Below, piece after piece: positions 26,289 to 53,823 of a stretch of 64,000 nt of DNA. The stretch lies in the NCBI RefSeq assembly GCF_003018115.1, contig NZ_CP027457.1; one strand, given 5' to 3'. Position 1 is the first letter of the stretch. Each line of letters opens with the position of its first letter. This stretch comes from Escherichia coli. GTDB taxonomy: Bacteria > Pseudomonadota > Gammaproteobacteria > Enterobacterales > Enterobacteriaceae. The position numbers were made by a program, and so were the translations under genes. The notes beneath the pieces are model-generated. The model did no database searches. It was not told the origin of the DNA and saw only the letters and a list, made by a program, of their open reading frames with translations.

Positions 26289-27749
26289 TTACTTCACGGA
26301 ATATTTCGCCACGGTCGCTTTCGCGCCATGCGCTAATAAAGACAAGTACGCTTCCGTCACTTTTGCAGTAAACAAACTATTGTCTGGCAAATCATCACCA
26401 AAGATCGCCTTAATCGCCAGCAATGACTGGACGCGCGCTTTCCCTTCAGCACTACTTTGTACAGCCTTCTGAATAACAGGTAACAGTGGGTCACTGATTT
26501 CAATCGGATTTCCCTGTTCATCAACACCACCGACATAACGCATCCAACCCGCGACGCCCAGCGCCAGCAGATCGAACTTGCTGTCATGCGCCAGATGCCA
26601 GCGAACAGAATCCAACATCCGCTGTGGCAATTTCTGGCTGCCATCCATCGCAATCTGCCAGGTTCGATGACGTAACGCCGGGTTGCTATAGCGTGCAATT
26701 AATCGGTTAGCGTAATCTTGCAAATCAACGCCCTGCACTTTCAGCGTCGGCGCTTGTTCCTGCAACATCAAGCCATACGCCGCATGACGATAATGTTCAT
26801 CTTCCATACAGTCATTAATGTGCTGATATCCGGCAAGATAACCCAGATACGCCAGGAATGAATGACTGCCGTTGAGCATGCGCAACTTCATCTCTTCATA
26901 AGGCAGTACATCGCTAACCAGTTCTGCTCCCGCTTTTTCCCATTCCGGACGTCCGGCTACAAAGTTATCTTCGATAACCCACTGGCGGAAAGGTTCACAG
27001 GCAACGCCAGCAGGATCGCGCACACCGGTAAGTTGTTCGATTTTCGCCAGCGTATCCTCTGTCACTGCGGGCACAATACGGTCCACCATTGTTGATGGGA
27101 AAGTCACGTTATCTTCGATCCATTGTGCCAGTTTTACATCAACGGCTTGCGCGTAGGAAGTGACAACGTCACGCATAACATGACCGTTTTCTGGCATGTT
27201 GTCACATGACATGACGGTAAATGCGGGAAGTCCTGCCGCTTTACGGCGAGCCAGCGCCTCAACAATCACCCCTGTTGCTGTTTTCGGCTGGTGGGGATTT
27301 TGCACGTCGGTAACGACCATCGGGTGATCGAGCATTAACTGTCCGGTCGCCGGAGAGTGTAAATACCCTTTTTCGGTGATTGTCAGAGAGACAATCGCGA
27401 TTTGCGGTTCACACATCGCAGCCAACACGGTTTCTAAGCCATCTATCTGTACGTGCAAGGCTTTTTTAACGACGCCAACGACGCGAGCCGTCCACGCATC
27501 GGCCGACATTTCCGCAACGGTATAAAGATTATCTTGCTGTTGTAAATCGGCAATTTGCTGTTCGCCGCCGATTAAGTTGACCTCATAATATCCCCAGTCA
27601 CTGAAATGTTCTGTAGCAAGAATATCGGCATACACGCCCTGATGCGCACGGTGAAATGCACCAAAGCCTAAATGAACAATTCTTGGGGCCAGGTTATTAC
27701 GATCATAAACAGGGAGTGTCGCTTTTGCTGATAACAAATTATTTCCCAT
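26289..27749 (-). CDS. ydfI: Mannitol dehydrogenase-family oxidoreductase YdfI
   Basis: 486-aa ORF with long-chain mannitol dehydrogenase family features (N-terminal Rossmann GFGAFHRAH). Confidence 0.85.
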
Positions 27750-27838: not shown

Positions 27839-29122
27839 TTACAGACTTCTGGAAGGTTGCGCAGCTCTTACAACACGCGGTTGATCTTCCGCAGCGTCTT
27901 CCAGCGCACTTAAATCACGGTCTTTCACTTCTGGCATTTTCAGTGCAGAGATTAAACCAATCACTGAATATGCCATGATCATAATGGCGATTGGATACCA
28001 GGATTCCGTCATGGTGCAGAAAATACCTGCCAGGATAGGACCAAAACCGGAAGCGATAAGACCACCAATTTCTTTTGAAATAGCCATCCGGGTAAAGCGG
28101 TTTTTACAGCCGAACATTTCTGCCATGGTAATGTTTTCCAGAGCAAATAATCCCAGCACCGCACAGTTATGAATCACAATCAGTGCAACCATAATGGTGC
28201 TCGGGGCATAGCTTTTATCTACGATGATAGAAAGCATTGGCCACGCCAGCACAATCGCGGAGGTATTCATAATAATATACGGGATCCGGCGACCAATTTT
28301 ATCGGATAACCAACCAAGCAACGGAATGGTCATAAAGCCGAGAATCGAACTGATCATCAATGCATCTGTTGGAATTGCTTTGTTAAACAATAACGTCTGT
28401 ACTAAATAGCCTGCAAGGAAAGTCTGAATTAAACCGGAGTTACCCGCCTGACCAAAACGCAGCCCTGTTGCCAGCCAGAAGGATTTGCTCTGGAACATGC
28501 TACCAGCAGGTGCAGGTTTTGCTGTCGGTTGGTTGCTGTCATTAACCTTCTCAAAGACCGGGCTTTCTTTCAGATTCATACGCAACCAGATAGCAAAGAC
28601 CATCACGACAACGCTCGCCAGGAACGGTATACGCCATCCCCACGCCAGCAGTTCCTCTTTACTGAGAATGAAGAACATAAAGGCCCAGATTGCCGTTGCG
28701 CTTAAGGTTCCGCAGTTAGTTCCCATAGCCACAAATGAGGAGATAATTCCGCGCTTACCTTTTGGCGCATATTCCGCCAGCATCGTACCGGCACCGGAAA
28801 TTTCCGCACCTGCACCCAACCCCTGAATAATACGCAGCGTCACCAGCAAGATGGGGGCAAAAACACCAATCTGTGCATAGGTCGGTAACACACCAATTAA
28901 GGTGGTACAGATCCCCATCATGGTGATGGTAATAAAGAGCACTTTTTTACGCCCTATTCTGTCGCCCATTTTGCCGAAAATAAATGCTCCGACAATACGC
29001 GCCACATAACCTGCACCGTAGGTTCCCATTGCCAAAATTAACGCCATTGCCGTTGATGATTCAGGAAAAAATATTTCATGAAACACTAACGCTGCGCCGA
29101 GCGAATATAACTGGAAATCCAT
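27839..29122 (-). pseudogene. ydfJ: ydfJ MFS (metabolite:H+ symporter family) gene, 5'-truncated at the prophage junction
   Basis: Translation starts already inside the conserved TM1 region (DFQLYSLGAALVFHEIFFP... aligns to about residue 35 of ProP/ShiA-type transporters); sequence right of 29122 is AT-rich and unrelated. Confidence 0.8.
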
Positions 29123-29726
29123 AATTCACAGGTGTTTTTTCCCATCCTGTGGTTTCCTTGGCGTTTTCTAGGTTTTTTCAGATAGTTGCATTTTTTTAAA
29201 AAGCATCCTAAGTTCGATCTCAGTGTCTATCTGGGGCCTATTTCTGTCCCATATATGCCCCAAAAAAACTCCCCAACAGATAAGTAGTTTTTTCATGGAT
29301 TTATGCGTAAAATCAAGAACGGCTGGAAATCATTCAATACTCACACTATCGAAAAATTTACCAGCCAATCGCAGCACGTTCTTGCATAAGGCGTGTCTGC
29401 GGTTTTTCAACTATTCAGATACATCACTCCCATCACATTCATTCCTCCGCATCAAAGGCATATAGGCTATATCACCTTGATATTTTTCTTTTTCAGATAA
29501 AAACTGTTATCTATGTATACTTTTAAACCCAATCCGTGTAGAGTCTCTGCATAAGATAGTTTGCAGTTGCCGCTTCAGCTTGCGCCATAAACCGCCTGAT
29601 TTTTGCTGCCACCTGTTAGCATTCCTGTATACCTGAAACGACAATGTTTATCTACGAACTTTAAGAACACCCAAGATAAAAATTGTCAACTATATCATAT
29701 ATAACACATTACTAATTCGAGGCTAT

Positions 29727-29840
29727 ATGAACAGCATACTGATAATCACATCTCTCCTTATCATATTCAGCATTTTTAGTCATGCCCTAATAAAATTAGG
29801 GATTGGCATATCCAATAACCCAGACAAAACCGATGTATAA
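29727..29840 (+). CDS. Candidate 37-aa small hydrophobic protein upstream of ydfK
   Basis: ATG with GAGG RBS; translation [37 protein letters not shown] has one predicted TM helix. No homology evidence. Confidence 0.3.
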
Positions 29841-29908
29841 GTCAACATATCCTGAATCAGACATACAATATCGCAATGAAAATCAATAATATTTTAAGGA
29901 ATATCTTC

Positions 29909-30142
29909 ATGAAATCAAAAGACACCCTAAAGTGGTTCCCTGCGCAGCTTCCTGAAGTAAGAATTATCCTAGGGGATGCTGTAGTGGAAGTAGCAAAACA
30001 GGGAAGACCTATCAATACCAGAACATTGCTTGATTACATTGAAGGAAACATAAAGAAAAAATCATGGCTGGATAACAAAGAATTATTACAAACAGCGATA
30101 TCAGTTCTTAAAGACAACCAAAATTTAAATGGTAAAATGTAA
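29909..30142 (+). CDS. ydfK: Qin prophage small protein YdfK (YnaE paralogue)
   Basis: MKSKDTLKWFPAQLPEVRIILGDAVVEVAKQGRP...; 77 aa from internal ATG of the 88-aa ORF. Confidence 0.8.
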   Translation: MKSKDTLKWFPAQLPEVRIILGDAVVEVAKQGRPINTRTLLDYIEGNIKKKSWLDNKELLQTAISVLKDNQNLNGKM

Positions 30143-30458
30143 TATAATAAACTTACTTTTTTATCATTTTTCCACTTTAACAACATTTTGCTCCACTTTT
30201 CCACGACCAAACAACTTGAAATCTGGTTAAAATAACACGCAACACTATTCTTCTTCCTTGAGTCCGCCCGGAACTCGAAAAACAAACCGAGTTAAAGCCA
30301 TTTTTCACAAAATCGATTTTGGGTCTCACCAAAATTACGGGGTTGCATACGCATTCGTTTATTTTCGAACGTGTACATACAAATATGCACAAAAATAATC
30401 ATAATTATTTTCTGAGATGCATTATGATATGAACACCAATTTCGTATAGAGTCTCACT

Positions 30459-31049
30459 ATGTCTCAAATTTTTGCTTACTGTCGGATATCAACGCTGGAT
30501 CAGACCACCGAAAATCAACGCCGGGAAATCGAAAGTGCAGGTTTTAAAATCAAACCTCAGCAAATAATCGAAGAACACATTAGCGGCTCAGCAGCAACCA
30601 GTGAGCGTCCTGGTTTTAACCGGTTGCTTGCTCGCCTGAAATGTGGTGATCAATTGATTGTGACAAAACTGGATCGCCTTGGTTGTAATGCAATGGATAT
30701 CAGGAAAACAGTGGAACAACTGACCGAAACAGGTATCAGAGTGCATTGCTTAGCATTGGGGGGCATTGACCTGACCAGTCCAACAGGAAAAATGATGATG
30801 CAAGTAATTTCAGCAGTCGCTGAATTTGAACGAGACCTTTTACTTGAACGCACTCATTCCGGGATAGTAAGAGCCCGCGGCGCAGGGAAACGTTTTGGTC
30901 GACCACCTGTGTTAAATGAAGAACAGAAACAGGCGGTATTCGAACGAATTAAGTCAGGTGTAAGTATAAGTGCCATTGCCCGGGAATTCAAAACCTCGCG
31001 GCAAACCATTTTAAGAGCCAAAGCAAAACTTCAGACACCTGACATATAA
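30459..31049 (+). CDS. pinQ: Serine-recombinase DNA invertase (Pin/Gin/Hin family)
   Basis: 196-aa ORF with N-terminal resolvase catalytic domain (YCRISTLDQ, active-site Ser) and C-terminal HTH. Confidence 0.9.
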
Positions 31050-31146
31050 AAAATAATCTCGGTGTGAGATGCTTTACGTCTTCCAAGCCCCCTTCCTTGC
31101 CGTAAATGGAAAGATACATCTAATTATAGAATTTATATGTTTTACC

Positions 31147-31722
31147 CTACGGCAGTGCTGGCCATTCAATATCCTGTGCAGTTGACGTATCAACACGGTT
31201 CAGCAATACCCGATACTTTTTCCATGCTTCCAGCAACGAGATTTCTTCCTCCGTTGCAATTTCCAGATCTGCAGCATCCTGAAGCGGCGCAATATGCTCA
31301 CTGGCTACCTGCATCAGGTTGTTTTTTGTTTCTTCCGCCTCCCGGATCCGGAACAGTTTTTCTGCTTCCGTATCCTTCACCCAGGCTGTGCCGTTCCACT
31401 TCTGAAACTCCCCTTCCGGCGATAACCAGGTAACATTTTCCGGTAACGGACCGAGTTCAGAAATAAATAACGCGTCGCCGGAAGCCACGTCATAAACCGT
31501 TTTACCCCGATGATCTTCAACGAGATGCCACGATGACTCATCACTGTTGAAAACAGCCACGAAGCCAGCCGGAATATCTGGCGGTGCAATATCGGTACTG
31601 TTTGCTGGCAGACCTGTATGAGGCGGAATATATGCATCACCTTCACCAATAAATTCATTAGTTCCGGCCAGCAGATTATAAATTTTTATGGTCCGTGGTT
31701 GTTCACTCATTCTGAATGCCAT
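31147..31722 (-). CDS. tfaQ: Tail fibre assembly protein
   Basis: 191-aa [37 protein letters not shown]...; start overlaps stf stop. Confidence 0.9.
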
Positions 31723-34700
31723 TATGCAAGCCTCACAATATAGTTAAATGCGATGTTTTTGACGGTGTTTTCCGCGTTACCAGCAGCGTTAACGGTGATG
31801 GTGTGTCCATGTGAACCAATCGCAACGGAGTGCGTATGAGCACCAATACCGACAGTATGTGCATGTGCGCCTGCGCTTGCAGCAGTGCCGGACAGCGAGT
31901 GGGTATGAGCACCATCTGATGATGTCTTCCCTGCATTACGAGTCTGGCCACTACCGCTTGTTGTGCTCATAATCCCCGCGCTTAGATTTGAAATCGCGGT
32001 ATAACCATTAGGGAAAATGCTCGTGTTCGTGCCACCAAATGCACCGGAACTCTTGTGTTGGTGCGCACCGGCACTATTTGCGGTCCCGCTAATACTATGG
32101 GTATGCGCCCCGGTGTTATTCGTGGATTTGGTTCCGTAATCAAACGACGATGTGGTTTTCGTCCCCAAATCCGTACTGGATGCGCTGGCGCTGTGGGTGT
32201 GCGATTTAATGCCGTCCTGTTCCTGAGATAATACGGCCCGACCACTGGCGGGCTTGCCCTTAATCGTCCAGCCACGCATATCAGGGATCACGCCTGACGG
32301 ATAAGCAACTGCAAGTTTCGGGTATGCAGATTTGTCAAAAGTCTGCCCCTGCATCAGGGCATAACCAGACGGAACGGTATCTGATGGCCACGGGATTGGT
32401 GCACCGACTGGATAAAACTCTGCAGGAGGATGAGCCGAGGTGTAAAGCTGCGCCCACGGCGACCAGTTTGCGTCGGTCGTATCCCGTCGTGAACGAATAA
32501 ATGCCGGAGCATGAGCACCGCTTGTACCACTCCAGCCGATGAGTAACTCACCTTCGCCAACGGCTGTCATCCCTTTCAGGTGAATGATATTTCCATACGC
32601 TGTTGGATATCCGTTGTTATACACCTCGTATAACTCAAGACCTGCTGCCCCCTGCGTATTGTCTGTCAGCGCGGTTACCCGACCTTTTGAAGCCAGATTA
32701 ACTGATGATACTGCTGTTCCACCTGACGGTAACGCCCCGATCTCTGATGCCGTTGGCTTATTTCTGGAGTTATAGTCCCTTCGCCAGCCAGGTGAATAAT
32801 CTGTTCCGTGATTAATATAGGTAAACTGGGCGTTAGTTGTTCCACCACCAGTGGAGGTGGTCGGTGTGGTAATGCGGATCGTCATCGCTGACTTTATCCC
32901 CATTACTTCAATGACAGCTCCGGCGAGATGAATATTACCGCAGTCAGTATCAGTAATGATTTTATTATTGCCATAAGACCAGGAACCCTTGCACATCCAG
33001 TATGGATGGTTAAATGCTCCCTGAGAATCCAGCCACTCGATAAACTGTGCAGTCGTCCAGTTTCCTGTTGTTGTGCTTACTGACCCACCGAAGGCACGGC
33101 AGGCACCAATATTTTTCGTAAAGGTATCTTTGCCAGGGATATCCGCACCGTTCTGATCTTTCTGCAGACGTTTCTCAGCATTGTCATTGGCTGCTTTTAC
33201 TGCCTTTGGTGTCGCGGCAAGCGTTTCAGACGTGCTGTTGGTCGCGCTGCTTAGCTGGATTATCCCTTTCTGTGCTGTCGTTGCATCCTGTGCGGTGTAT
33301 TTCCCGTTAGCCAGGTCATACGCGGCCTTAACGGCTTTTGGTGTTGCCGCCAGTGACTCGGAAGTGCTGTTAGTCGCACTACTGAGCTGTACTATCCCCT
33401 TTTTCGTCGTGCTCGCATCCTCAAGCGCCACGGCGGATGCAATATCCTCTGCCCGTTTTGCTGCTGTCTCGGCGCGCGTTGCTGCGGATTCTGCCGTACT
33501 TTTGCTCTGAGCTGCCGCCGTCGCACTGCCAGCAGCCTCTGTCGCCTTCGTGGATGCCGTCGTGGCGCTGCTCTTCGCTGCTGACGCTTGTCTGGTCGCC
33601 TCATCTTTTGAAGCAGACGCCGATGATGCCGATGACGCCGCCGAACTGGCTGACGATGCGGCAGCCGTTTTTGAGGATTCTGCGCTGGTTTCCGACGCTT
33701 TCGCGTTCGTTTCGGATGTCTTCGCTGCGGAAGCAGACCTCGCTGCTGCGCTGGCCTGTTCAGTGGCTTCGCCAGCCTTCGTTGTGGCTGTTGAAGCAGA
33801 CGATGCGGCGCTTTCTGCCGATTTTCCGGCGGCGGTGGCACTGGCTGAGGCCTGCCCGGCACTTGTTGACGCTGCACTGGCAGACGACGCAGCCGCTGTT
33901 TTTGAGCCTGCCGCAGCCGAGGCGCTCTGTCCCGCTGCCGTTTCAGAAGACCTGGCGTTCGTCTCTGACGTTTTTGCCGCCTTCGCGGAATTTCCTGCCG
34001 CTGTTGCCGAGGAAGCTGCGCTACTGGCGCTCGAGGATGCGTTCGTTTCTGATGATTTTGCCGCCTCTTTTGAAGCCGACGCATCCCGGGCTGAGGTGGC
34101 AGCTTCTGACGCTTTCGTGGTCGCGGTGGATGCAGAAGTGGCTGCTGATTGTTGTGACGCTGCAGCATTCGTTTCTGACGTTTTCGCGGCACTGGCACTG
34201 GTAGCTGCCGCGCTTTTTGAGGACTCTGCAGCGGCAGCACTTTTTGATGCTTCAGTGGCCTTTGTTGATGCCGTTCCTGCGCTGGAAGACGCTGACTGAG
34301 CCGACGAAGCGGCCTGTCCGGCTGACGTGCTGGCTGCGCGTGCTGAGCCTGCAGCATCAGTCGCATGGGTTGCCGCCTCACGGGCAGATGTGCCGGCATC
34401 GCCGGCTGACTTCTTCGCGGCTGCCGTGTTCTGTGCCACCGCGGACGCGTTACGCGCCACCTCTTCCACCATCAGTTCAAAACGGCGCAGAGCCTCCGGA
34501 CGGGCATCATCCTCCGTCATGGCACCGAGAAAATCATTCAGCGTACCGGGTCGGGAATCTTCATACACGGTGATGGTCCCGGCATGTGACGGCGGGAATC
34601 CTTCCACCAACAGAATAACGCTGTACTGACCGTACTCAACGTCCATGCTGTAACGCCCGGCTTCATCCGGATTTTCTGAGGCCAGCGTGTTCACCACCAC

Positions 34701-34796
34701 CGCGGTGCTGTTACGTTTTGCTTTCAGCTGGATTGTGCAGTTCTGTACCGGTTTTCCTGTGCCGTCTTTCAGTACACCTGAAATCTTTACTGCCAT
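31722..34796 (-). CDS. stf: Side tail fibre protein, lambda Stf-like, full length (about 1024 aa)
   Basis: N-terminus [26 protein letters not shown]... and C-terminus ...[24 protein letters not shown] match my recollection of lambda Stf; track start is a GTG two codons upstream of the ATG. Long Ala/Ser/Thr-rich central repeats; His-x-His motifs near C-terminus. Confidence 0.9.
33180..34330. repeat. Low-complexity Ala/Ser/Thr-rich coding repeats inside stf (GC-rich, open in several frames)
   Basis: Reiterated ...SAA(S/T)SA.../KTSETNA units and duplicated [15 protein letters not shown](S/T)[11 protein letters not shown] block; generates spurious ORFs on both strands. Confidence 0.8.
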
Positions 34797-34805
34797 ATTC
34801 ACCCC

Positions 34806-34833
34806 ACAAAAAAGCCCGCCTGAACAGGCGGGC
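34806..34833 (-). terminator. Rho-independent terminator downstream of lom
   Basis: Hairpin GCCCGCC-TGTTCA-GGCGGGC followed by a T-run on the minus strand. Confidence 0.6.
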
Positions 34834-34860
34834 TGTCATAACACTGTGTTACCTGGCTAA

Positions 34861-35460
34861 TCAGAACTTATAACCGACACCCACGATGAAACCGTCAGTG
34901 CGCCAGTCGCCACTGCCGGAGCCTTCATAAGCAATATCAATGGCCACGGATTCGGTCGGGTTAAACTGCACGCCAGCTCCCCACGCCAGAGACGTGTTGC
35001 TGTGGCGACCGTCATCACTTCCGGTCAGCACGTCGTGCGTTTTCCCCTTGTTGTCAGTTACGCGGAGATAATCCCCGGAGAAAGTCGACACACGGCTGTA
35101 AGCCATACCCGCCATCGCATACGCGCTGAACCATTCATTCACGCGCACAGACGGCCCCACCATCACGCTGAACCAGCGGTTACGCACGGAATCTTCATGC
35201 CAGCGGGTATCGCTGTAACGGGTAAGCTGGCGATTCTTGTCTCCTGCATAGCTGAATGACGTCACCAGCCCCAGTGTGTCCGTAAACTCATAACGGTATT
35301 TCACGTTAATCCCGTTAAGATCATCGCTGCCGGGAACGTTCGTCGAGGCATGAAGATACCCCGCGCTCAGCGTGGACTGATGTTCAGATGCCCATGCAGG
35401 CGCACCGGATACGGCCAGACAAATGGCTGCGGACAAAATGGCGGCATAAAGTTTACGCAT
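34861..35460 (-). CDS. lom: Lom/Ail-family outer-membrane beta-barrel protein
   Basis: 199-aa ORF with signal peptide and C-terminal ...[15 protein letters not shown] as in lambda Lom. Confidence 0.9.
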
Positions 35461-35484
35461 AATTACCTCTCGCTTTTCTGCAAT

Positions 35485-35508
35485 AAAAAAGGCACCATTT
35501 CTGGTGCC
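35485..35508 (-). terminator. Rho-independent terminator downstream of J
   Basis: Hairpin GGCACCA-GAAA-TGGTGCC followed by a T-run on the minus strand. Confidence 0.55.
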
Positions 35509-35529
35509 CTTATATGGGTTATAACAATT

Positions 35530-38500
35530 TCAACGAATACTGATGCCGGAAGCGGCTTTTTTGGTCACAATCACCGTACAGTCGGTGATATTGCCTGCCC
35601 CCTGATTGCCTTTCTGGAAAATCTTAAACTCCAGAGTGACGCTACCACCACCACTAGGCATATCAATAACTGCACTGTAACTACCGGGAATGGCCCCTTT
35701 AGTTTCTCTGGATGCGATTAATACGCCGTTTTTGCGAACTTCAAAACCATAACCCGTGTATCGCGTGCCTCCTGGGTTATTTCCGCTCCCCGGATCGTCA
35801 TACGCTATACCGTTAAAAATAATGGGCGGAATAATAATCTGGCGGTCAAAGTTATGATCATCGCTGATGGTGACTGTAACCGTACCGTTTGGTGTTTCCG
35901 TGTTACCCCACGTACCGACTTTTTTCGGGAAGGCTTTTGATACAGCTTTAACGAAATCCCCTCTGACCTGGGTCGCCTCCAGCATGCCCTTAATCGTACA
36001 GTTCTGGTTAATCGTGACATTGTTGAGCGTTCCTGAGTTCGCATTCACACTACCACTGATATCCGCATTTTTAGCGGTCAGCTTTCCGTCTGATGTCAGG
36101 GAAAATACCGGAGGACTGCCACCGCTGGTAATGGTGGGGGCCGTCAGGCGTTTCAGGAACACTTCATTCATGAATATCTGATCGCCCTGACCAACAAACA
36201 TCGGCTTTGTGTTGCCATTCGCAGGATTAATCATCGCAATCCTGTCTGCTGCCAGCAGCACCTGACTCTGCATGCCGTCAGGGGTGTTCTCAATACCGGC
36301 ACCGATACCCGCAATATAAAGGCGTCCGTCCTGCATCTGCTGCAGCTTCACTGCCCACATGCTGTTCAGGTTATTATTTGTATCAACCTGAACCTTCTGT
36401 ATCTGCTGGATTGCCGCACTCTGGTCTTCCAGTTTCTTATTGACGGTCTGTGTTATTTCATTGCTGACATCCGTTATGGACGTCCTGATTTCAGTCAGGT
36501 CAGGCGCAAGCTGACCGTTATCAATCTGCGTCCACAGCTCCTGAGCCAGATGGGTTTTCCCTATCTCGCCTTTGAAAAAATCCAGATAGCCTGATGCATC
36601 ATCACTCGGCTGACCGACAGCCTCCACGAATGCCGATTTGCCAACGGTGTTCACACTGCGAACGTAAAAATAATAATCATGGCCCGGTTTGATATTGATA
36701 CTGGCGGCTATCCAGTACAGTGCCGTACCAAGATAACGCGCGCTGGTTTCAACCTGCCTGATATCCGCAATCCGTTTTTCCGAGAACCAGAACTCAAACT
36801 GTACCGTCGGGTCATAAACCGCAAGATGCGGCGTGGCGGTTATCTGAAAATAGCCCGGCGTCAGCTCAATCCGCGACGGCGCTGCCGGTGCGGCAATCCG
36901 GAACGATACCGACGCCGGATCGCCCTGCTGCCCCCACGCATTTACTGCCCGGACTGTCAGCCTGTAGTTCCCCAGAGCCAGTTGTGTGAAGCGGTAAGTG
37001 GTTTCCGTCGTCCGGGCCGTGCTGACCAGCCGCTCACGGCCGTCATCCGCTGCCACGGTCAGGCGAAGCAGGAAGCTCACGCCCTTCACCACCTTCGGCG
37101 TGTCCCAGCGCGCCAGCACCTGGTATTCCCCGCTGTCTGCGGTGACTTCTGCGGTCAGGTGCTGCACCGCTGGCGGCGTGACACCATTTACCGTGCCGCT
37201 CTGGTCGCCGTCAAAGTGCGCCCCGTTATCCACGATGGCCTCTTTTTCCGGTACATGCTGCACGGCGGTGATGGCATACGTGCCGTCGTCGTTCTCACGG
37301 ATACTCACGCAGCGGAACAGGCGCTGGCGCAACGTCGACAGCTTCAGCCCCCATACGCTGTATTCAGCAACGCCGTCAGGAACACGGCTCACTTTCACCT
37401 TCACGCCGTCGGTGACGGACTGAACCTCCACGCTGACCGGACTCCCCTGCCCGTCAACCAGGCTTATCAGCGTGGTGCCGGAAGATGGCAGCGTGATTTC
37501 ACGGTCGAGCGTCAGCGTCCGGGTCTGGCTGTTTACCGCCAGCACGCGCCCGCCGGTGCGGATACCGGCATAGTCATCATCGCAGATTTCAATGACATCG
37601 CCCGGTACATGGCGAAGCCCTTCGGCACCCACGCTGAAGTCCACGGTCTGCGTTTCCAGCAGTTCTGTTTTAATCAGCCACAGCCCGGCGCGGTGTGCCT
37701 GCCCCCGGCTGGTACAGCCAAAAGCATCCATCTTCGTGACGTTACGACCGTAACGGGCAATGGCCTGCGTGTCCTCCACAAGCTCTGTCGCCGTCTCCCA
37801 GCCGTTATTCGGGTCAATCCAGTTCACCTCAACGGCATTATGGCGGTCCTTCAGGGCGCTGAAGCTGTAGCGGAACGGCGCACCATCATCCGGCATCACC
37901 ACATTACTGCGGTTATAGGTCCACACCTTATCCGACGGTCGGTCCTGCACGAACGTCAGCGTCTGCCCGTTCCATACCGGCATACAGCGCATCGCAGAGC
38001 AGAAATCACTGAGCACATCCCACGCCTTGCGCTGTGTGGTCAGGTACGCATTACAGGTGATGCGCGGCTCTGTGCCGCCAAAACCGTCCGGCACCGACTG
38101 ATCGCAATGCTGGCCGATGACATACAGCGCCCATTTGTCCACATCCGCCGCACCAAGACGTTTCCCCATGCCGTAGCGCGGATGGGTCAGCATATCCCAC
38201 AGACACCAGGCCATGTTGTTGCTGTATGCTGGCTTAAACGTTCCGTCCCAGATACCGCTGTATTGCCGCGTCTGCGGGTTATAGTTCGACGGCACCTGCA
38301 GAATGCGCCCGCGCAGATGATAATTACGGCTCACCTGCTGGCTGCCGAACTGCTCCGAATCCACCTGCACGCCGACCAGTGCCGTGTTCGGGTAGCACTG
38401 TTTCACATCGATGATTTCGGTGTATGACGACCAGAGCGTTTTGTTCTGCAGCTGGTCTGTGGTGCTGTCCGGCGTCATCCTGCGCATCCGTATATTGAAC

Positions 38501-39027
38501 GGGCGCGGCGGCAGGTTACCCACCACCACCGAGGCCAGATACTGCGAGGTGGTTTTGCCCTTAATGGTGATGTCTTTTTCCGTCACCCAGCCACCATTAC
38601 GCTGGATCTGAACCAGCAGGCGGACTTCCGACGGATTCCGGTCCCCCTTTGAGGTGGTTTCCACCAGTGCCTGCACGCCGAAGGTAAAGCGCAGACGGTC
38701 GATGTTTGCAGACGTAATGGTGCGGGTGATCGGCGTGTCATATTTCACTTCCGTACCCAGCACCGTCTCGGAGCCGGAGGATTCAAACCCCTCCGGCGGT
38801 GTCTGCTCCTGCTCACCGGCACGGAACACCACCGTGACACCGGAGATGTTGGTATTCCCCTCAGTGTCCAGCACCGGCGTACTGTTCAGCAGCACGCTTT
38901 TTAATCCATCCACCGGACCTTCAACCGGCCCTTCGCTGATGGCATCGATCACACTCAGCAGCTGCGTGGACTTCAGGTTGTCCTTCGCTTCGCGCGGGGT
39001 ATGCCCCTTACTGCTGCCTTTACCCAT
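35530..39027 (-). CDS. J: Tail tip host-specificity protein J (1165 aa), lambda J-like with divergent C-terminal region
   Basis: N-terminal about 790 aa match my recollection of lambda J ([34 protein letters not shown]...); central fibre and last roughly 250 aa differ. Confidence 0.9.
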
Positions 39028-39087
39028 TCCTCACGCTCCATAAATGACAAAACCGCCCGCAGGCGGTTTCACATAAAACATTTTGCA

Positions 39088-39759
39088 TCAGCGACCAATC
39101 ACCACAACCTGACCACCGTCCCCTTCGTCTGCCGTGCTGATCTCCTGAGAAACCACGCGAGACCCCACGCGCATTTCCCCGTACAGAACAGGCAGAACAT
39201 TGCCCTGGGCAACCATGTTATCCAGTGAGGAGAAATAGGTGTTCTGCTTACCGTTATCCGTTGTCTGTGTACGGGGAGTTCTGGCTTTCGGTGCCAGCAT
39301 CTGCGCCACACCACCGAGCACCATACTGGCACCGAGAGAAAACAGGATGCCGGTCATACCACCGGTCCCAATGGCTGCCCCCCATGCTGCAAGGGTGGCT
39401 CCGGCGGTAAAGAATGATCCGGCAATGGCGGCAGCCCCCAGGACAATCTGGAATACGCCACCTGACTTGGCCCCGGCGACTCTGGGAACAATATGAATCA
39501 CAGCGCCATCAGGCAGAGTCTCATGTAACTGCGCCGTTAACCCGGACGTGCTGACGTCCCGCCCGGCAATCCGTACCTGATACCAGCCGTCGCTCAGTTT
39601 CTGACGAAACGCCGGGAGCTGTGTGGCCAGTGCCCGGATGGCTTCAGCCCCCGTTTTCACACGAAGGTCGATGCGGCGACCAAATCGTTGTAAATCCCCG
39701 TAAAGGCAGATGCGCGCCATGCCCGGTGACGCCAGAGGGAGTGTGTGCGTCGCTGCCAT
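39088..39759 (-). CDS. I: Tail assembly protein I
   Basis: 223-aa ORF, lambda I length; overlaps K 3' end. Confidence 0.9.
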   Translation of the reverse strand: MAATHTLPLASPGMARICLYGDLQRFGRRIDLRVKTGAEAIRALATQLPAFRQKLSDGWYQVRIAGRDVSTSGLTAQLHETLPDGAVIHIVPRVAGAKSGGVFQIVLGAAAIAGSFFTAGATLAAWGAAIGTGGMTGILFSLGASMVLGGVAQMLAPKARTPRTQTTDNGKQNTYFSSLDNMVAQGNVLPVLYGEMRVGSRVVSQEISTADEGDGGQVVVIGR

Positions 39760-40400
39760 TTGTCGGTGTACCTCTCTCGTTTGCTCAGTTGTTCAGGAAT
39801 ATGGTGCAGCAGCTCGCCGTCGCCGCAGTAAATTGCGGCGTGATTCGGCACTGATGAACCAAAACAGCACAGCAGCACATCGCCCGGCTGTGCCGCTGAC
39901 AACGGCACCTGATACAGCCCCGTCGCCTCCAGATTATCCAGATAGAGATTCTGGCCGTTACGCCACCAGTCATCCTCACGATAAAAGTCCGGCATCTCAA
40001 TCCCCGCCAGATGATAAGCATCCCGGAACAGTGTGTAACAGTCCGTCACACCGTGCTCAAAGCGCCGCCCGGTGAGATGCGGCACACAGCGGAACTTATG
40101 AATCGTCCCCCGGCAGACCAGCCACCACGGCAAATCACTCTGCACCTGCAGCCGCCGGTCGGCCTCACTCAGCCAGGGCAGACCACCGGGGTGGCTGTGG
40201 ACCAGCGCCACAATCTCACCCTGCATTTCTGCCTGCAGCCAGTCTTCCGGCGACATACGGAAATACGCCTCCGGCTCACCGGAGATATTCACGCAGGGAA
40301 AATATCTTTCCCCCTCCGGCGTGCTTACCACGAAGCCGCACGACTCCGCTGGCGCACATCGCCGGGCGTGCGCCAGAATCGCTGATTCTGTCTGTGTCAT
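39657..40400 (-). CDS. K: Tail assembly protein K (JAB/MPN plus NlpC/P60 domains)
   Basis: 247-aa ORF MTQTESAILAHARRCAPAESCGFVV...; HSHP metalloprotease motif and Cys-His peptidase motifs. Confidence 0.9.
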   Translation of the reverse strand: MTQTESAILAHARRCAPAESCGFVVSTPEGERYFPCVNISGEPEAYFRMSPEDWLQAEMQGEIVALVHSHPGGLPWLSEADRRLQVQSDLPWWLVCRGTIHKFRCVPHLTGRRFEHGVTDCYTLFRDAYHLAGIEMPDFYREDDWWRNGQNLYLDNLEATGLYQVPLSAAQPGDVLLCCFGSSVPNHAAIYCGDGELLHHIPEQLSKRERYTDKWQRRTHSLWRHRAWRASAFTGIYNDLVAASTFV

Positions 40401-40405
40401 GGGAT

Positions 40406-41104
40406 TTACTGCGAAAGTTTGTTAATGGAAAGGAAGCTGCCAAAGTTGCCGACATTATTGCGAAACTTACAGCCACTCAGGCATTTGCTGCATTTATCCT
40501 TCGTGATATCGGACGTCGGCTGGTCATATTCATCCGCGACCGCCGGACCGCTATAACCGCACTCATCGCCGCGATAGGTCCAGGTGCAGGTGTTGGCCAG
40601 CATGATACGTCCCGGAAAAACAGCGCCATCCGTTTCCGTCGGCGTGGACAGTACAAAGGAGGCACTCACCGCGCTCAGTTCGCTGCACTGCTCAATGCGC
40701 CAGCGGCTGATCACCTCCTGCTCCGGATCGGCGTAACTGTTTCCGTTGACGAAGTTCACCGCATCCAGAAAACGGGCGTAAACCTTACGCCGGACCACCG
40801 TTCCGCCGACCAGACTCTGCATATCTTCCGCCATCCCGGTGACCATACCGTACAGGTTAGAAACCGTCAGCGTGGGGCGCGTACTGGTGCCTTTGCCATT
40901 CAGTTCAAAACCGCTCCCCTGAATGGGATACGGCTGATACTGTCGCCCCTGCCAGGTGACCGGCTCACCTTTTTCGTTCTGCTCATTACAGAAAAAATAA
41001 CGTTCTCCACCGACCTCTGTCAGGTCGATTTCCCAGAGCACCACGCTGGCCGACTGCTCCGCACGGGTGCATTCATTCAGTGTTTCCTGCCGGATATCCT
41101 GCAT
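40406..41104 (-). CDS. L: Tail tip protein L
   Basis: 232-aa ORF at the lambda L position, with C-terminal Cys cluster. Confidence 0.9.
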   Translation of the reverse strand: MQDIRQETLNECTRAEQSASVVLWEIDLTEVGGERYFFCNEQNEKGEPVTWQGRQYQPYPIQGSGFELNGKGTSTRPTLTVSNLYGMVTGMAEDMQSLVGGTVVRRKVYARFLDAVNFVNGNSYADPEQEVISRWRIEQCSELSAVSASFVLSTPTETDGAVFPGRIMLANTCTWTYRGDECGYSGPAVADEYDQPTSDITKDKCSKCLSGCKFRNNVGNFGSFLSINKLSQ

Positions 41105-41433
41105 CAGTTCACCACCTGTTCAAACTCTGCGCTGAACTCAACACGCAACATACTGACCCGCGACGACCATTTTGCGCAGGTCACCTTTATCTGCCGCCAC
41201 TCATAAGGCGGCGTCCACAGAAAGGATTTCCAGCCCCCGTGCTCTTCCAGAAACGACTCCAGTACCGTGGCCTCCTCACGGGGGACAGAAAGCGTCACGC
41301 TGTACGTTTTCAGGTTGGCATTCAGCCCGGCAGGCGCTCGCTGAGAATAGCCATCACCAAAGCGCACCTTTCTTACAGAAGGGACCGAAGCCACATCCAT
41401 ACCGGGTTTCACTTTCCAGCGGAAGGTCTTCAT
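41104..41433 (-). CDS. M: Tail tip protein M
   Basis: 109-aa ORF at the lambda M position. Confidence 0.9.
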   Translation of the reverse strand: MKTFRWKVKPGMDVASVPSVRKVRFGDGYSQRAPAGLNANLKTYSVTLSVPREEATVLESFLEEHGGWKSFLWTPPYEWRQIKVTCAKWSSRVSMLRVEFSAEFEQVVN

Positions 41434-43991
41434 CGTCCACCTCCGGAGAACAGGCCACCATCACGCATCTGTGTCTGAATTTCATCACGGGCACCCTTGC
41501 GGGCCATGTCATACACCGCCTTCAGAGCAGCCGGACCTATCTGCCCGTTCGTGCCGTCGTTGTTAATCACCACATGGTTATTCTGCTCAAACGTCCCGGA
41601 CGCCTGCGACCGGCTGTCTGCCATGCTGCCCGGTGTACCGACATAACCGCCGGTGGCATAGCCGCGCATCAGCCGGTAAAGATTCCCCACGCCAATCCGG
41701 CTGGTTGCCTCCTTCGTGAAGACAAATTCACCACGGTGAACAATCCCCGCTGGCTCATATTTGCCGCCGGTTCCCGTAAATCCTCCGGTTGCAAAATGGA
41801 ATTTCGCCGCAGCGGCCTGAATGGCTGTACCGCCTGACGCGGATGCGCCGCCACCAACAGCCCCGCCAATGGCGCTGCCGATACTCCCGACAATCCCCAC
41901 CATTGCCTGCTTAAGCAGAATTTCTGTCATCATGGACAGCACGGAACGGGTGAAGCTGCGCCAGTTCTGCTCACTGCCGGTCAGCATCGCCGCCATATTC
42001 TGTGCAATACCATCAAAGGTCTGCGTGGCTGCACTTTTTACCTGCGACATACTGTCCGTGGCGCTCTCTTCCCACTCACTCCAGCCGGACTTCAGGCCTG
42101 CCATCCAGCTCCCGCGAAGCTGGTCTTCAGCCGCCCAGGTCTTTTTCTGCTCTGACATGACGTTATTCAGCGCCAGCGGATTATCGCCATACTGTTCCTT
42201 CAGGCGCTGTTCCGTGGCTTCCCGTTCTGCCTGCCGGTCAGTCAGCCCCCGGCTTTTCGCATCAATGGCGGCCCGTTTTGCCCGTTGCTGCTGTGCGAAT
42301 TTATCCGCCTGCTGCGCCAGCGCGTTCAGGCGCTCCTGATACGTAACCTTGTCGCCAAGTGCAGCCAGCTGGCGTTTGTACTCCAGCGTCTCATCTTTAT
42401 GCGCCAGCAGGGATTTCTCCTGTGCAGACAGCTGGCGACGTTGCGCCGCCTCCTCCAGTACCGCGAACTGACTCTCCGCCTTCCACAAATCCCGGCGCTG
42501 CTGGCTGATTTTCTCATTTGCTCCGGCATGCTTCTCCAGCGTCCGGAGTTCTGCCTGAAGCGTCAGCAGGGCAGCATGAGCACTGTCTTCCTGACGATCG
42601 CCCGCAGACACCTTCACGCCGGACTGTTTCGGCTTTTTCAGCGTCGCTTCATAATCCTTTTTCGCCGCCGCCATCAGCGTGTTGTAATCCGCCTGCAGGA
42701 TTTTCCCGTCTTTCAGTGCCTTGTTCAGTTCTTCCTGACGGGCGGTATATTTCTCCAGCGGCGTCTGCAGGCGTTCATAAGCCTTCTGCGCCTCTTCGGT
42801 ATATTTCAGCCGTGACGCTTCGGTATCGCTCTGCTGCTGCGCATTTTTGTCCTGTTGACTCTGCTGCTCAGCCTTCTTTCGGGCGGCTTCAAGCGCAAGA
42901 CGGGCCTTTTCACGATCATCCCAGTAACGCGCCCGCGCTTCATCGTTAACAAAATAATCATCCTTGCGCAGATTCCAGATATCGTCCGCTTTCTTAAACG
43001 CGGCCTCTGCCTTAATCAGCATCTCCTGCGCGGTATCAGGACGACCAATATCCAGCACCGCATCCCACATGGATTTGAATGCCCGTGCTGTCCTGTCTGC
43101 CCAGGTTTCCAGCGTGCCCATGTTCTCTTTCAGGCGGCGGGTCTGGTCATCAAACCCTTTCGTTGCGGCCTCGTTCGCCGCCTGCAATGCCCCGGCTTCA
43201 TCGCCGGAACGCTGCAACTGAGCAACATACGCAATCTGCTCCGCCGTCACGTTATGGAACTGGCGTGCCATCGCCGTCAGCCCCGACGTCGGGTCTGTGG
43301 TCAGCTTCCCGAAGGCTTCAGCGACCTTGTCCACCTCCACGCCGGATGCAGAGGAGAAACGCGCCACACTCTGGCTGATGGACGCAATCTGAGCCTCACC
43401 GCTTACCCCCGCCTTAACCAGTGCGCTGAGTGACTCGCTGGTCTGGTTAAACGTCAGCCCTGCCGCCTGCCCGGCTCTGGACAGGACCAGCATACGATCT
43501 GCCGTCAGTCCCGCCTGATTGCCGGAAAGGACCAGCGTTTTGTTGAAATCGGACAGGGTTGAGTTGCCCTGATACCAGGCATACGCCAGCGCTCCGGTCG
43601 CCACCGCCAGCGAGGTAGCCCCCACCATCGGCAGGGTGATCGCACCGGCAAGCCCCCGGAACATGGGGATCATCCCGCCGAAGGAGTCCTTCACCTGACC
43701 CCCCTGTTGCAGCAGGATCAGCCACGGACTTTGCCCGCCTGCAAGCTGCGTGGCCACGTCGGTGAACTGTGCAGGCAGCATACGCATGGCGGCTTTATAC
43801 TGCCCGACGGAAATCCCCGCTTTCTGTGCAGCCAGCGCCTGTCGGCTCAGCGACTGTTCAACGACTGCCGCTGTTTTTTTCGCATCAGTTTCCGTACCGG
43901 AAAAATGACGCCTGACTCTGGCCATCTGCTCGTCAAATCTGGCCGCATCCAGACTTAAATCAACGACCAGATCGCCTACCGGTTCAGCCAT
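41430..43991 (-). CDS. H: Tail tape measure protein H
   Basis: 853-aa ORF, same length as lambda H, coiled-coil rich with Gly-rich C-terminal region. Confidence 0.9.
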   Translation of the reverse strand: MAEPVGDLVVDLSLDAARFDEQMARVRRHFSGTETDAKKTAAVVEQSLSRQALAAQKAGISVGQYKAAMRMLPAQFTDVATQLAGGQSPWLILLQQGGQVKDSFGGMIPMFRGLAGAITLPMVGATSLAVATGALAYAWYQGNSTLSDFNKTLVLSGNQAGLTADRMLVLSRAGQAAGLTFNQTSESLSALVKAGVSGEAQIASISQSVARFSSASGVEVDKVAEAFGKLTTDPTSGLTAMARQFHNVTAEQIAYVAQLQRSGDEAGALQAANEAATKGFDDQTRRLKENMGTLETWADRTARAFKSMWDAVLDIGRPDTAQEMLIKAEAAFKKADDIWNLRKDDYFVNDEARARYWDDREKARLALEAARKKAEQQSQQDKNAQQQSDTEASRLKYTEEAQKAYERLQTPLEKYTARQEELNKALKDGKILQADYNTLMAAAKKDYEATLKKPKQSGVKVSAGDRQEDSAHAALLTLQAELRTLEKHAGANEKISQQRRDLWKAESQFAVLEEAAQRRQLSAQEKSLLAHKDETLEYKRQLAALGDKVTYQERLNALAQQADKFAQQQRAKRAAIDAKSRGLTDRQAEREATEQRLKEQYGDNPLALNNVMSEQKKTWAAEDQLRGSWMAGLKSGWSEWEESATDSMSQVKSAATQTFDGIAQNMAAMLTGSEQNWRSFTRSVLSMMTEILLKQAMVGIVGSIGSAIGGAVGGGASASGGTAIQAAAAKFHFATGGFTGTGGKYEPAGIVHRGEFVFTKEATSRIGVGNLYRLMRGYATGGYVGTPGSMADSRSQASGTFEQNNHVVINNDGTNGQIGPAALKAVYDMARKGARDEIQTQMRDGGLFSGGGR

Positions 43992-44822
43992 ACCGGACTC
44001 CTCCTGCGATCCCTTCTGATACTGTCATCAGCATTACGTCATCCTCCGTCATGTCCGCCACATCCGGGGAAGCGGGGATAACTTCATTCCCTTCCGGGCC
44101 AAAGCGGACGCCTCCGGCAAGCCCTGCCGCTTTCTGCATCAGCACATCATCTTCAGGCTCTTCGTCAGCCTCACGCCGGTTCAGCAGACTGAAATCCAGC
44201 GGATGCATATCCGGATCGCTGAAAAACAGGCTGAGCACGGTGTACGTCAGCCCGGAAAAGTGCATATCCAGCAGAACATCATGAAAATAATGGGTACTGT
44301 AAAAGCGGTGCCAGTCGGCATACTCCGTGGATGACATCCCGGCAAGCATGGCACGCCAGTCGGGTCGCCCCATCTCTCGCGCCAGTTTCAGGGCAAAACT
44401 CAGCTCACCATCGAACACTTTCCCGCAGAAACAGGCTCTGCAGGCCCGGCGTCCTCTGTCTGTTCAGGAGCATCATTCACCACAAACTCATACATACCGG
44501 ACAGCCGGTACACCACGTTTTCAGCATGAGAAATTGCCTCCGTGGGCCAGGTGGTAAGCACTTCCTGCTCAATCTGTTTAACGGCTTCATTCATGGAAGG
44601 CAGCTTTGTCTTCTTCGGATGGTTATGCCACAGGGACATCGCCACCAGAAACGCGCCGGTTCTGATGGCGTCTTCCACAGTAAACTTCCGGTTGCTGTCT
44701 GACTCCGCCTGTTCTGCCTGCCGTTTCATCAGGGCGAGATGCTCAATACGCTGCAGGGCTGACAGTTCAGAAAGCGTGACGGTCACACCGTTATGTTCAA
44801 ATGATTCGGTTTTCAGGAACAT
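43984..44822 (-). CDS. GT: G-T fusion tail assembly chaperone made by -1 programmed ribosomal frameshift
   Basis: -1 frame ORF (43984-44418) opens exactly at the GGGAAAG slip site (plus 44418-44424) near the end of G. Confidence 0.8.
44400..44822 (-). CDS. G: Tail assembly chaperone G
   Basis: 140-aa ORF MFLKTESFEHNGVTVTLSELSALQRIEHLALM...; slippery heptamer G GGA AAG six codons before stop. Confidence 0.9.
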   Translation of the reverse strand: MFLKTESFEHNGVTVTLSELSALQRIEHLALMKRQAEQAESDSNRKFTVEDAIRTGAFLVAMSLWHNHPKKTKLPSMNEAVKQIEQEVLTTWPTEAISHAENVVYRLSGMYEFVVNDAPEQTEDAGPAEPVSAGKCSMVS

Positions 44823-44837
44823 CTCTGACTCCCCGGA

Positions 44838-45578
44838 TTAACTGGCGGTGACGGTGATTTCTGCAACCGCAGCAAACTCACCATTACCGGATACAACCGG
44901 AATGTTGACCTTGCCTGCAGCAACGCCGTTCACGGTGATGGTCATACCACTGACCGACACGGTGGCTTTTGTTTTATCCGCAGACACCGCACGAAAGCTC
45001 TTGTCGGTTACGCCCTCCGGCTGGAAGGCCACGGTCAGCGTGGTGCTCTGCCCTTTCACCACCGAGGTGCTGGCAGGCGTCACGGTCATGCCGGTTGCCG
45101 CTGTTACCGTGCTGCGATCTTCTGCCATCGACGGACGTCCCACATTGGTGACTTTCACCGTGCGGGTGATCACTTCCTTCGCCGTCACCGCCTTACCGAT
45201 ACTGCTGACCCAGCCACGGAACACATCGACCGTGCCGTTCGGGAAGCGGATTTTATAGGCACGGGTATCGCCTTCATTAAACCACGCCAGCAGCGCCTGC
45301 TGCCCCTGCTCTCCGGGCATCCACGCCAGCGTGAAGCTGGTATCTCCGGCAGATTTCTGCCCCTGCCCGGTCGCAGTCCAGTCTGCATCTTCATCATCGA
45401 GATAGCTGTCGTCATAGGACTCAGCGGTCAGTTCGCCGGGCGTCAGGTCTTTAACTTTTGCCAGACGCGACCAGTCAACGTCTGAAAGCGGATTCGCATA
45501 AGGGTCACCGCTCCCCTTATAAACCCACAGGGTGGTCCCGGCACCTTTCACCGGCATTGTAGGATTTGGTACAGGCAT
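44838..45578 (-). CDS. V: Major tail tube protein V with C-terminal Ig-like domain
   Basis: [24 protein letters not shown]... 246 aa from internal ATG of the 256-aa ORF. Confidence 0.9.
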
Positions 45579-45585
45579 AGCGTCC

Positions 45586-45981
45586 TCACATTTCATAGGT
45601 AATGACATAAGTCAGATCGGCTGAACTCCACAGGCCCGCATCATCGTCGCGCCGGTAGTCATAGCCGCTGGCCACCATACTGGTGATCAAATCTGACAGT
45701 GCCGGGATATCGCTCATCACCGGATAAATCCGGGACTCCATCCACGCATCCAGCTCTGAATCCGGCACCTGAGCAGGCAGGAAAACTTCGATATGCAGCT
45801 CCGCCTGCCAGGTATCGCTGTCCAGCTCTTCGCCCGTGTATTCAGCGCCGGTGAGATAAACGGCAACTGCCGGAAAATCCGCCTCATCAAAAACAGCGGG
45901 GCGACCATCAAAAAACGTCGCCCCGGTGTCATGCTTCTCCAGTGCATCCAGTACGGCTGCACGGAGTTCAGTATGTTTCAT
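45586..45981 (-). CDS. U: Tail terminator protein U
   Basis: 131-aa ORF at the lambda U position. Confidence 0.9.
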
Positions 45982-46556: not shown

Positions 46557-46567
46557 ACATCCCCCTT

Positions 46568-46921: not shown

Positions 46922-46932
46922 AGCGCCTCCCG

Positions 46933-47331: not shown

Positions 47332-47372
47332 GGACTCCTCCACAGAGAAACAATGGCCCCGAAGGGCCATGA

Positions 47373-48398: not shown

Positions 48399-48454
48399 AA
48401 AAAAATCCCGTAAAAAAAAGCCGCACAGGCGGCCTTTAGTGATGAAGGGTAAAG

Positions 48455-48787: not shown

Positions 48788-48796
48788 AAACATCCC

Positions 48797-50096: not shown

Positions 50097-50116
<20 letters not shown>
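48797..50116 (-). CDS. C: Head maturation protease/scaffold C (GTG start) with nested in-frame Nu3 scaffold reading frame
   Basis: VTAELRNLPHIASMAFNEPLMLEPAYARVFF... 439 aa from GTG at 50114-50116; S49-type protease fold; 20-nt overlap with B as in lambda. Confidence 0.85.

Positions 50117-53797: not shown

Positions 53798-53823
<26 letters not shown>

Follow-up and report, generated by a model that had tools for sequence, protein, structure and literature searches.

The tail-side attachment junction of a Qin-type lambdoid prophage inside ydfJ of Escherichia coli

Does the ydfJ gene of this E. coli chromosome begin where its reading frame begins, or has its 5' end been removed by an inserted phage? 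The question is raised by a 64,000-nt stretch of contig NZ_CP027457.1 (hereafter the window), in which the ydfJ frame on the minus strand abuts AT-rich DNA. A preliminary description had assigned the frame to ydfJ, with a start inside the first transmembrane (TM) region of MHS-family transporters, and had placed a prophage attachment junction at about 29115-29130. We put the probability at about 96% that positions 29114-29128 are the tail-side attR (P-O-B') of a Qin/PPydfJ-type, lambda-like temperate phage integrated in ydfJ. Coordinates of the features are collected in Table 1.

Table 1. Features at the ydfJ junction and sequences of the four attachment sites (attachment sites in window orientation).
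Feature	Position	Strand or extent	Sequence or description
ydfI	26289..27749	minus	mannitol dehydrogenase family; co-oriented with and downstream of ydfJ
ydfJ 3' fragment	27839..29122	minus	codons 29-455 and stop; MHS-family MFS transporter YdfJ
att core of attR	29114..29128		GAAATCCATAA-TTCA; 11 nt exact between attP and attB (29114-29124) and 4 nt past the 1-nt A-run difference
P arm of attR	29129..29262	~134 nt	identical to K-12 Qin and mEp460 attP
Candidate bending-protein site	29174..29188		TTTTTCAGATAGTTG; repeated in the attP P' arm as TTTATCAAATAGTTG; putative
Candidate arm-type integrase site	29245..29265		TGTCCCATATATGCCCCAAAA; related 21-mer in the P' arm of attP; putative
AT-rich accessory region, att to pinQ	29129..30458	+	35.8% GC; ynfT and ydfK (cold-shock protein) as annotated in relatives
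pinQ	30459..31049	+	serine DNA invertase; Resolvase and HTH_7 domains; not the integration enzyme
Qin-type lambdoid prophage body	29129..64000	runs to window end	from gene content and collinearity
attP	free phages		...CATGACTCTT GAAATCCATAA-TTCA CAGGTGTTTTTTCCC...
attB	intact ydfJ		...ATATAACTG GAAATCCATAAATTCA AGCGCAGTGCC...
attR	window		...ATATAACTG GAAATCCATAA-TTCA CAGGTGTTTTTTCCC...
attL	CFS3246, reverse complement of L004 8770-8810		...CATGACTCTT GAAATCCATAAATTCA AGCGCAGTGCC...

The open reading frame listing of the window gives ydfJ as a 427-aa ORF with an ATG start. The intact YdfJ protein (WP_000151243.1) has 455 aa and is encoded at positions 4139..5506 of a 9.4-kb locus from the prophage-free strain AHM8C212RI (hereafter L001). 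Protein alignment of the window ORF with residues 29-455 of intact YdfJ is gap-free, with 426 of 427 residues identical. The ATG start codon (29120-29122) corresponds to the internal Met29 of intact ydfJ, and 28 codons (84 nt) are missing at the 5' end. As a side observation, ydfJ is 97-99% identical across E. coli.

Both proteins were compared with the NCBIfam profile TIGR00883 (metabolite/H+ symporter, MHS family; curated cut-off 443.45 bits), and both score above the cut-off. Intact YdfJ matches positions 1-400 from its residue 23 (462.9 bits), and the window ORF matches positions 7-400 of 400 (453.7 bits). The ORF fails to cover the full profile, the start of TM1 being absent, and is a truncated member of the family. 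Because the profile is entered at position 7, the start of the ORF falls inside the first conserved (TM1) block, as the preliminary description had proposed. The break point in the protein, ...GTALEF|MDFQLYSLGAALVF..., lies in the middle of this block. Translation upstream of the ATG reads ...KKHL*IMDFQ, with an in-frame TGA two codons before the ATG, so no 5' extension of the frame is possible. The same stop codon rules out an N-terminal extension of YdfJ supplied by the phage.

An uninterrupted frame that starts with ATG, and whose 427-aa product is listed as a CDS ("putative transporter YdfJ") in the current K-12 RefSeq record (NC_000913.3), could be taken for a genuine full-length gene, the AT-rich DNA then being its native upstream region and no insertion having occurred. 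This reading is almost certainly wrong. When 5,426 complete E. coli genomes were probed with a 400-nt segment that has the intact site at its centre, 2,007 (~37%) showed no interruption; in these, the 455-aa gene is continuous with rspB. In addition, the family profile begins six positions earlier than the ORF, the ShiA, ProP and TcuC models align with it from their positions 22-40, the DNA to the right matches free phage genomes, and PGAP labels the same stretch in relatives as "incomplete; missing N-terminus" or as a pseudogene. The preliminary description had named a full-length homologue with the N-terminus of the window ORF as the observation that would speak against truncation; the full-length homologues have 28 extra N-terminal residues. 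A naturally short ydfJ is refuted by full-length alleles whose residues 29-455 equal the window ORF.

To locate the junction from the host side, the whole 9.4-kb prophage-free locus was compared with the window by blastn. A single match was obtained, joining L001 1-5429 with window 23700-29128 at 99.1% identity. Host homology stops at 29128, and GC content falls from 46.7% in the ydfJ fragment to 35.8% over 29129-30458, in agreement with the earlier remark that unrelated AT-rich DNA lies to the right of 29122. The host sequence at the junction is ydfJ, interrupted at codons 26-31. Pairwise alignment with the same locus is exact up to 29124, followed by a 1-nt indel in an A-run and then by four matching bases up to 29128. 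From the phage side, the matches of the window to the unintegrated phages mEp460_ev081, PhiR42_1, HannyBb, and Tritos all begin at exactly 29114 (97.8-99.4% over 29114-29750). Since the phage match starts at 29114 and the host match ends at 29124/29128, the att core is delimited to 29114-29128; the interval of about 29115-29130 is refined accordingly.

Alignment to an uninterrupted ydfJ, which had been suggested as the way to define the att sequence, also disclosed a 1-nt difference between attP and attB. The core of the unoccupied site is GAAATCCATAAATTCA, with AAA in attB where attP and attR have AA. A short core is common to attP, attB, attL and attR, with 11 nt exact and 4 nt across the 1-nt indel. 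The immediate flanks are ...CTCTT GAAATCCATAA-TTCA CAGGTG... in attP and ...AACTG GAAATCCATAAATTCA AGCGCA... in attB. In attP of mEp460_ev081 and HannyBb, the 15-nt core is flanked by int on one side and, on the other, by the DNA found right of 29128 in the window. The core holds ydfJ codons 29-31 (ATG GAT TTC). These codons consequently occur at either end of the prophage: residues 1-31 are encoded by the 5' fragment, residues 29-455 by the 3' fragment. Counting in the partly matching CT- left of the core lengthens the site to 18 nt for attP and 19 nt for attB. This fits the 18-19-bp att sequence which Nakamura et al. (2021, PMC8112680) defined experimentally for PPydfJ from attP, attL, attR and attB; an attP amplicon is reported there for PPydfJ-R of O26 strain 11368.

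The DNA right of the junction had been described as prophage, and this is borne out by comparison with strain CFS3246. Window positions 27685-64000 are collinear with the CFS3246 prophage up to the window end (99.9%; 99.88-99.98% by segment), with one small indel. No tandem repeat was found at this indel (47258-47313), which is a deletion between short direct repeats. Starting from the junction, the CFS3246 prophage carries ynfT, ydfK, pinQ, tfaQ, the tail fibre gene, lom and J, and J is followed by full lambda-like tail and head sets, the portal, and both terminase subunits (nohA). Further on are ynfO, ydfO, gnsB, cspI and the lysis cassette (essD, ydfR, rrrQ, rzpQ), then cspB, cspF, ydfT (Q-like antiterminator) and ydfU, and finally rem, hokD, and relBE. 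By collinearity, the window ends at about relB/ydfV, near relBE. The tail fibre has ~1026 aa in the ORF listing of the window and 1024 aa according to the annotated coordinates of CFS3246.

With its head, tail, lysis and Q genes, the window element represents a full-length lambdoid prophage and differs in this from the remnant known from K-12. The name Qin used in the preliminary description is appropriate with regard to site and type, which are those of K-12 Qin, but not if it is read as the 20.5-kb remnant. A search for inverted repeats that could bound a tail-fibre segment invertible by PinQ gave only a weak 20-nt pair, 80% complementary, located inside ydfK and pinQ; this pair is probably due to chance. 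In annotation terms, ydfJ becomes a 5'-truncated fragment, and the interval from 29114 to at least 64000 becomes prophage.

The missing 5' piece of ydfJ had been predicted to lie at the other prophage end, outside the window. Neither this fragment nor rspB is present in the window, as judged from a 33-nt pattern with three mismatches allowed and from blastn of the 9.4-kb prophage-free locus, which matches nothing past 29128. In CFS3246, the element continues with dicB, dicA, dicC, an exonuclease gene, xis, and the gene for a 426-aa integrase. A domain search, run on the CFS3246 homologue (L004) as the window strain's own int is beyond the window, found Arm-DNA-bind_2 and Phage_integrase domains in the integrase and a DUF1233 match in the excisionase. 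Past the integrase gene comes the ydfJ 5' fragment, which is interrupted by an IS2 (GGTGA duplicated); rspB follows. The reciprocal junction, ...GCGCTTGAATTTATGGATTTC|AAGAGTCATGCGTG..., is situated beside the integrase and excisionase genes.

The core-to-core distance in CFS3246 is 50,282 bp, which in view of the 99.9% identity places the expected distal end of the window prophage ~15 kb past 64000; the size of the free phages (45-49 kb) places it at least 10 kb past this position. By analogy, the sequence ...CACGCATGACTCTT GAAATCCATAAATTCA AGCGCAGTGCC... is expected there, followed by an 84-93-nt ydfJ 5' fragment and rspB. Collinearity thus supports the predicted placement, the 5' piece lying 50.3 kb away in CFS3246, by int/xis and rspB, and the distal junction and the integrase of the window prophage would be those of its 99.9% identical relatives. 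At the far end of the K-12 prophage, an intQ pseudogene and ynfP (36 aa) lie beside rspB (NC_000913.3). VanOrsdel et al. (PMC6001520) list YnfP as MTIEKHERSTKDLVKAAVSGWLGTALEFMDFKSHAC. It consists of the first 31 residues of YdfJ followed by five that are read from the P' arm of the phage (AAGAGTCATGCGTGTTAA), as at attL of CFS3246.

In genomes other than the 2,007 with an uninterrupted site, the two halves of the 400-nt probe match apart from each other. The ydfJ half ends at L001 5429 and the rspB half starts at L001 5411-5414, which means that the halves overlap by the core. With a probe covering the junction (window 27700-29600; matches counted at coverage of at least 80%), the window junction together with conserved phage-arm DNA was found in 3,173 of 5,426 genomes (~58%). 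Matches of this probe fall into classes ending at query positions 1429, 1563, 1703, and 1901. The class ending at 1429 represents empty sites, including AHM8C212RI, the one member of the class that was inspected. The matches that end at 1563 and 1703 stem from other prophages, which have only the proximal arm in common. For instance, O157:H7 strain MB9-1 carries DinI-like and DUF1076 genes after ~134 nt of arm (~80% identical), and strain L26 has a different prophage that shares the proximal arm, with IS903B nearby.

The recurrence of the breakpoint bears on the possibility that the junction is a chance fusion of prophage and ydfJ, produced by deletion, inversion or IS-mediated rearrangement and not by att integration. 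According to PMC8112680, prophages in ydfJ do invert with ompW prophages in some STEC strains, and IS elements are common nearby, as illustrated by IS2 in the CFS3246 5' fragment and by IS1 and IS3 in other strains. However, thousands of genomes break at the identical base, which falls in the attP core of the phage; the reciprocal junction has the same core, and inspection of the sequence at 29100-29140 revealed neither an IS end nor a target duplicate. The breakpoint cannot be ascribed to chance, because it falls on the same base in thousands of genomes and four phages start at exactly 29114. Chance rearrangement was rejected on this recurrent breakpoint at attP combined with the reciprocal attL, and we regard it as very improbable. 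Genes for tRNA are a common att target; no tRNA or Rfam element was found at this junction.

Integration at an att site would have proceeded by recombination of a phage circle carrying attP with the chromosomal attB at ydfJ codons 26-31, in a site-specific reaction catalysed by a tyrosine integrase. Strand exchange probably took place inside the 11-nt identical block GAAATCCATAA, since attR of the window keeps the phage AA while the int-side attL of relatives keeps the host AAA; we infer the exact cleavage positions from the sequences compared. The reaction would split ydfJ, leaving codons 1-31 by rspB at the int/xis end (ynfP in K-12) and placing codons 29-455, the window ORF, at the tail-fibre end. 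Nothing was found that counts against integration, and the 1-nt difference between attP and attB leaves 11 nt of exact identity.

The phage arm next to the core could also be delimited. It is still recognisable in a different prophage at the O157:H7 site (with DinI/DUF1076 cargo) and in Stx2a phage records; the latter were deposited with flanking ydfJ and match window 29050-29262. The stretch shared with these heterologous prophages and records delimits a probable functional P arm of ~134 nt (29129-29262). A block TGTCCCATATATGCCCC, starting at 29245, is conserved in the O157 prophage, and attP contains a related copy of it in its P' arm. The P' copy of TTTTTCAGATAGTTG, TATCAAATAGTTG, agrees with the IHF consensus WATCAANNNNTTR. 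The repeats at 29245-29265 and 29174-29188 are candidate arm-type Int and IHF sites, respectively.

At the empty site, rspA, rspB, ydfJ, and ydfI are co-oriented, with a gap of 57 nt between rspB and ydfJ. The insertion puts ~50 kb between rspAB and ydfJ-ydfI and would thereby uncouple the two pairs. The ydfJ fragment shows no decay, having no frameshift and one amino acid change in 427. A crude consensus scan of the minus strand at 28900-29900 (~780 nt upstream of the ATG) gave no sigma-70-like promoter, and no Shine-Dalgarno-like motif could be seen by eye in the 15 nt before the ATG. The fragment is most likely a non-functional remnant, given that it lacks the upstream sequence native to ydfJ and the N-terminal half of TM1 and that an in-frame TGA of phage origin precedes the start codon. 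Against a loss of function, the ORF is intact and listed as a CDS in K-12 RefSeq. We also infer from sequence the loss of YdfJ transporter function and any polar effect on ydfI.

The undecayed ORF may instead suggest that a Met29-455 form of YdfJ is still made and works, the att core providing its ATG, or that the prophage is a reversible switch ("active lysogeny") whose excision restores ydfJ and the rspAB-ydfJI arrangement. Excision is plausible in the light of intact int and xis in relatives and the existence of near-identical free phages, and ydfJ RNA is altered upon DicC induction in K-12 (PMC11430063). We nevertheless consider both possibilities very unlikely. Half of TM1 is gone, and the upstream minus strand offers neither an SD-like sequence within 15 nt nor a promoter-like site. 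The ~58% of genomes that are occupied include many degraded prophages, such as K-12 Qin with its intQ pseudogene, and an intact ORF is equally expected from recent or repeated integration and recombination between strains. The positive support amounts to ORF intactness, intact int/xis, and free phage relatives. If true, a switch would rejoin ydfJ codons 1-31 to 29-455 and relink ydfJ-ydfI to rspAB, which is putatively a cluster for sugar-acid catabolism controlled by RspR; a switch or Met29 function could then explain an intact fragment in more than half of E. coli genomes.

The integrated element preferred here has a close counterpart in Qin (Kim) of K-12 MG1655 (NC_000913.3, 1632277..1652745), which occupies the same host gene with a base-identical junction. 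Alignment of the two over window 29095-29420 shows one substitution, near 29408. As the end of K-12 ydfJ (b1543, 427 aa) at 1632285 corresponds to window 29122, the annotated Qin start at 1632277 falls on window 29114, where the core begins. K-12 Qin shares with the window element ynfT, ydfK, pinQ and tfaQ, as well as nohA, cspI, the lysis cassette, cspB/F, ydfT, and ydfU. It is, however, a 20.5-kb remnant in which the terminase-to-J stretch of head and tail genes is missing, as is the greater part of stf, while intQ and ydfE are present as pseudogenes. In the window element, the morphogenesis block is complete, and its 99.9% identical relative suggests a length of ~50 kb with int and xis intact.

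Prophages termed PPydfJ in STEC (O157:H7, O26:H11, O145:H28) likewise integrate in ydfJ (PMC8112680). The junction of O157:H7 MB9-1 has the core and the ~80% identical P arm in common with the window. Cargo next to att differs, being DinI-like and DUF1076 proteins (nleG family, according to that paper) in PPydfJ and ynfT, ydfK and pinQ in the window. The four free phages have the order xis-int-attP-ydfK-pin-tfa-stf, as in the window-type prophage, but are unintegrated.

Similarity also extends to the lambda Int/attP system. The integrase of the relatives, like that of lambda, combines an arm-binding N-terminal domain with a tyrosine-recombinase catalytic domain and has xis adjacent to it. Both att sites consist of a short core and long phage arms, with int at one prophage end and tail genes at the other. 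Core and target are different, as lambda uses the gal-bio intergenic region and the Qin-type phage a site inside a coding region. Site-specific insertion into a host ORF is known also for Rac in ttcA and e14 in icd (PMC6379469). In the case of e14, the 3' end of icd is duplicated and restored, and TtcA receives a variant N-terminus from Rac, whereas no replacement N-terminus comes with the Qin-type phage; an in-frame stop stands two codons before Met29 instead.

Several reports describe this insertion site. Ramisetty and Sudhakari (2019, PMC6379469) reviewed the insertion of Qin at the ydfJ 5' end, by which the gene loses its promoter and 28 N-terminal codons, and give the prophage as present in 48% of 638 strains. 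According to E. coli W genomics, Qin is inserted at ydfJ in each of the strains W, K-12, B, and Crooks (PMC3032704), and SE11 carries a 46.8-kb lambda-like prophage "between ydfJ and rspB" (PMC2608844). The junction, the truncation and the att sequences are thus already known from K-12 annotation, reviews and STEC papers, and the present locus is an ordinary case. It represents textbook lambdoid use of a site inside a host gene and adds little to that picture. What is quantified here is the core at 29114-29128, with exchange probably in GAAATCCATAA, the long and apparently complete form of the prophage, and the state of the site in E. coli, empty in ~37% of complete genomes and carrying the junction in ~58%.

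The locus of E. coli strain 2018-05-2CC (L002), which gave the top match to the junction probe (99.2%), shows that one and the same insertion exists in independent states of decay. Its ydfI is interrupted by IS1A (L002 813-3050), and in its prophage a partial tail-fibre gene is joined to a partial terminase gene, a remnant condition resembling that of Qin in K-12.

Features annotated in the window are listed in the table. Inspection of the region comprising pinQ and the tail-fibre genes (window 29100-35000) revealed neither inverted-repeat crossover sites of at least 16 nt around these genes nor a second tfa/stf-C set in the opposite orientation. PinQ may therefore be left without an invertible segment.

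Features of the prophage and adjoining host region
Feature	Window position	Strand	Remarks
STnc560, Hfq-binding sRNA family	19569-19782	minus	full-length match, 281.9 bits; host region upstream of ydfJ junction
pinQ, serine invertase	30459-31049		intact; Resolvase + HTH_7
tfaQ + tail fibre	31147-34802		
Rfam family IS009	31181-31379	minus	full-length match, 220.9 bits; within tfaQ coding region
gpFI-like ORF	46933-47370	minus	
cspA-type thermoregulator 5' UTR (Rfam RF01766)	56405-56790	minus	upstream of prophage cold-shock gene
cspA-type thermoregulator 5' UTR (Rfam RF01766)	59300-59692	minus	upstream of prophage cold-shock gene

Genes downstream of the two RF01766 elements are cspI and cspB, named by collinearity; altogether, there are at least three csp paralogues in the window prophage, in addition to ydfK.

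The prophage of strain CFS3246, elsewhere 99.9% identical, lacks ~57 nt (window 47258-47313) within the gpFI-like ORF. Because the direct repeat CAGTTC(T/A)TCTTTCGTC lies on both sides of this segment, the difference looks like a repeat-mediated in-frame indel.

In the free temperate phage mEp460_ev081 (L006), a second core-like sequence, TGAAAACAATAATGCACAGGT, is located inside the int 3' end (2373-2393), 127 nt away from the true core. Aligned with the core region TGAAATCCATAATTCACAGGT, this sequence is identical in 18 of 21 positions, a similarity that could be due to chance, or could mark a secondary or ancestral site.

At the attL of CFS3246, the 93-nt ydfJ 5' fragment is itself split by IS2 (L004 7404-8739), accompanied by a 5 bp target duplication (GGTGA). 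Precise excision of the prophage would therefore not restore ydfJ in this strain.
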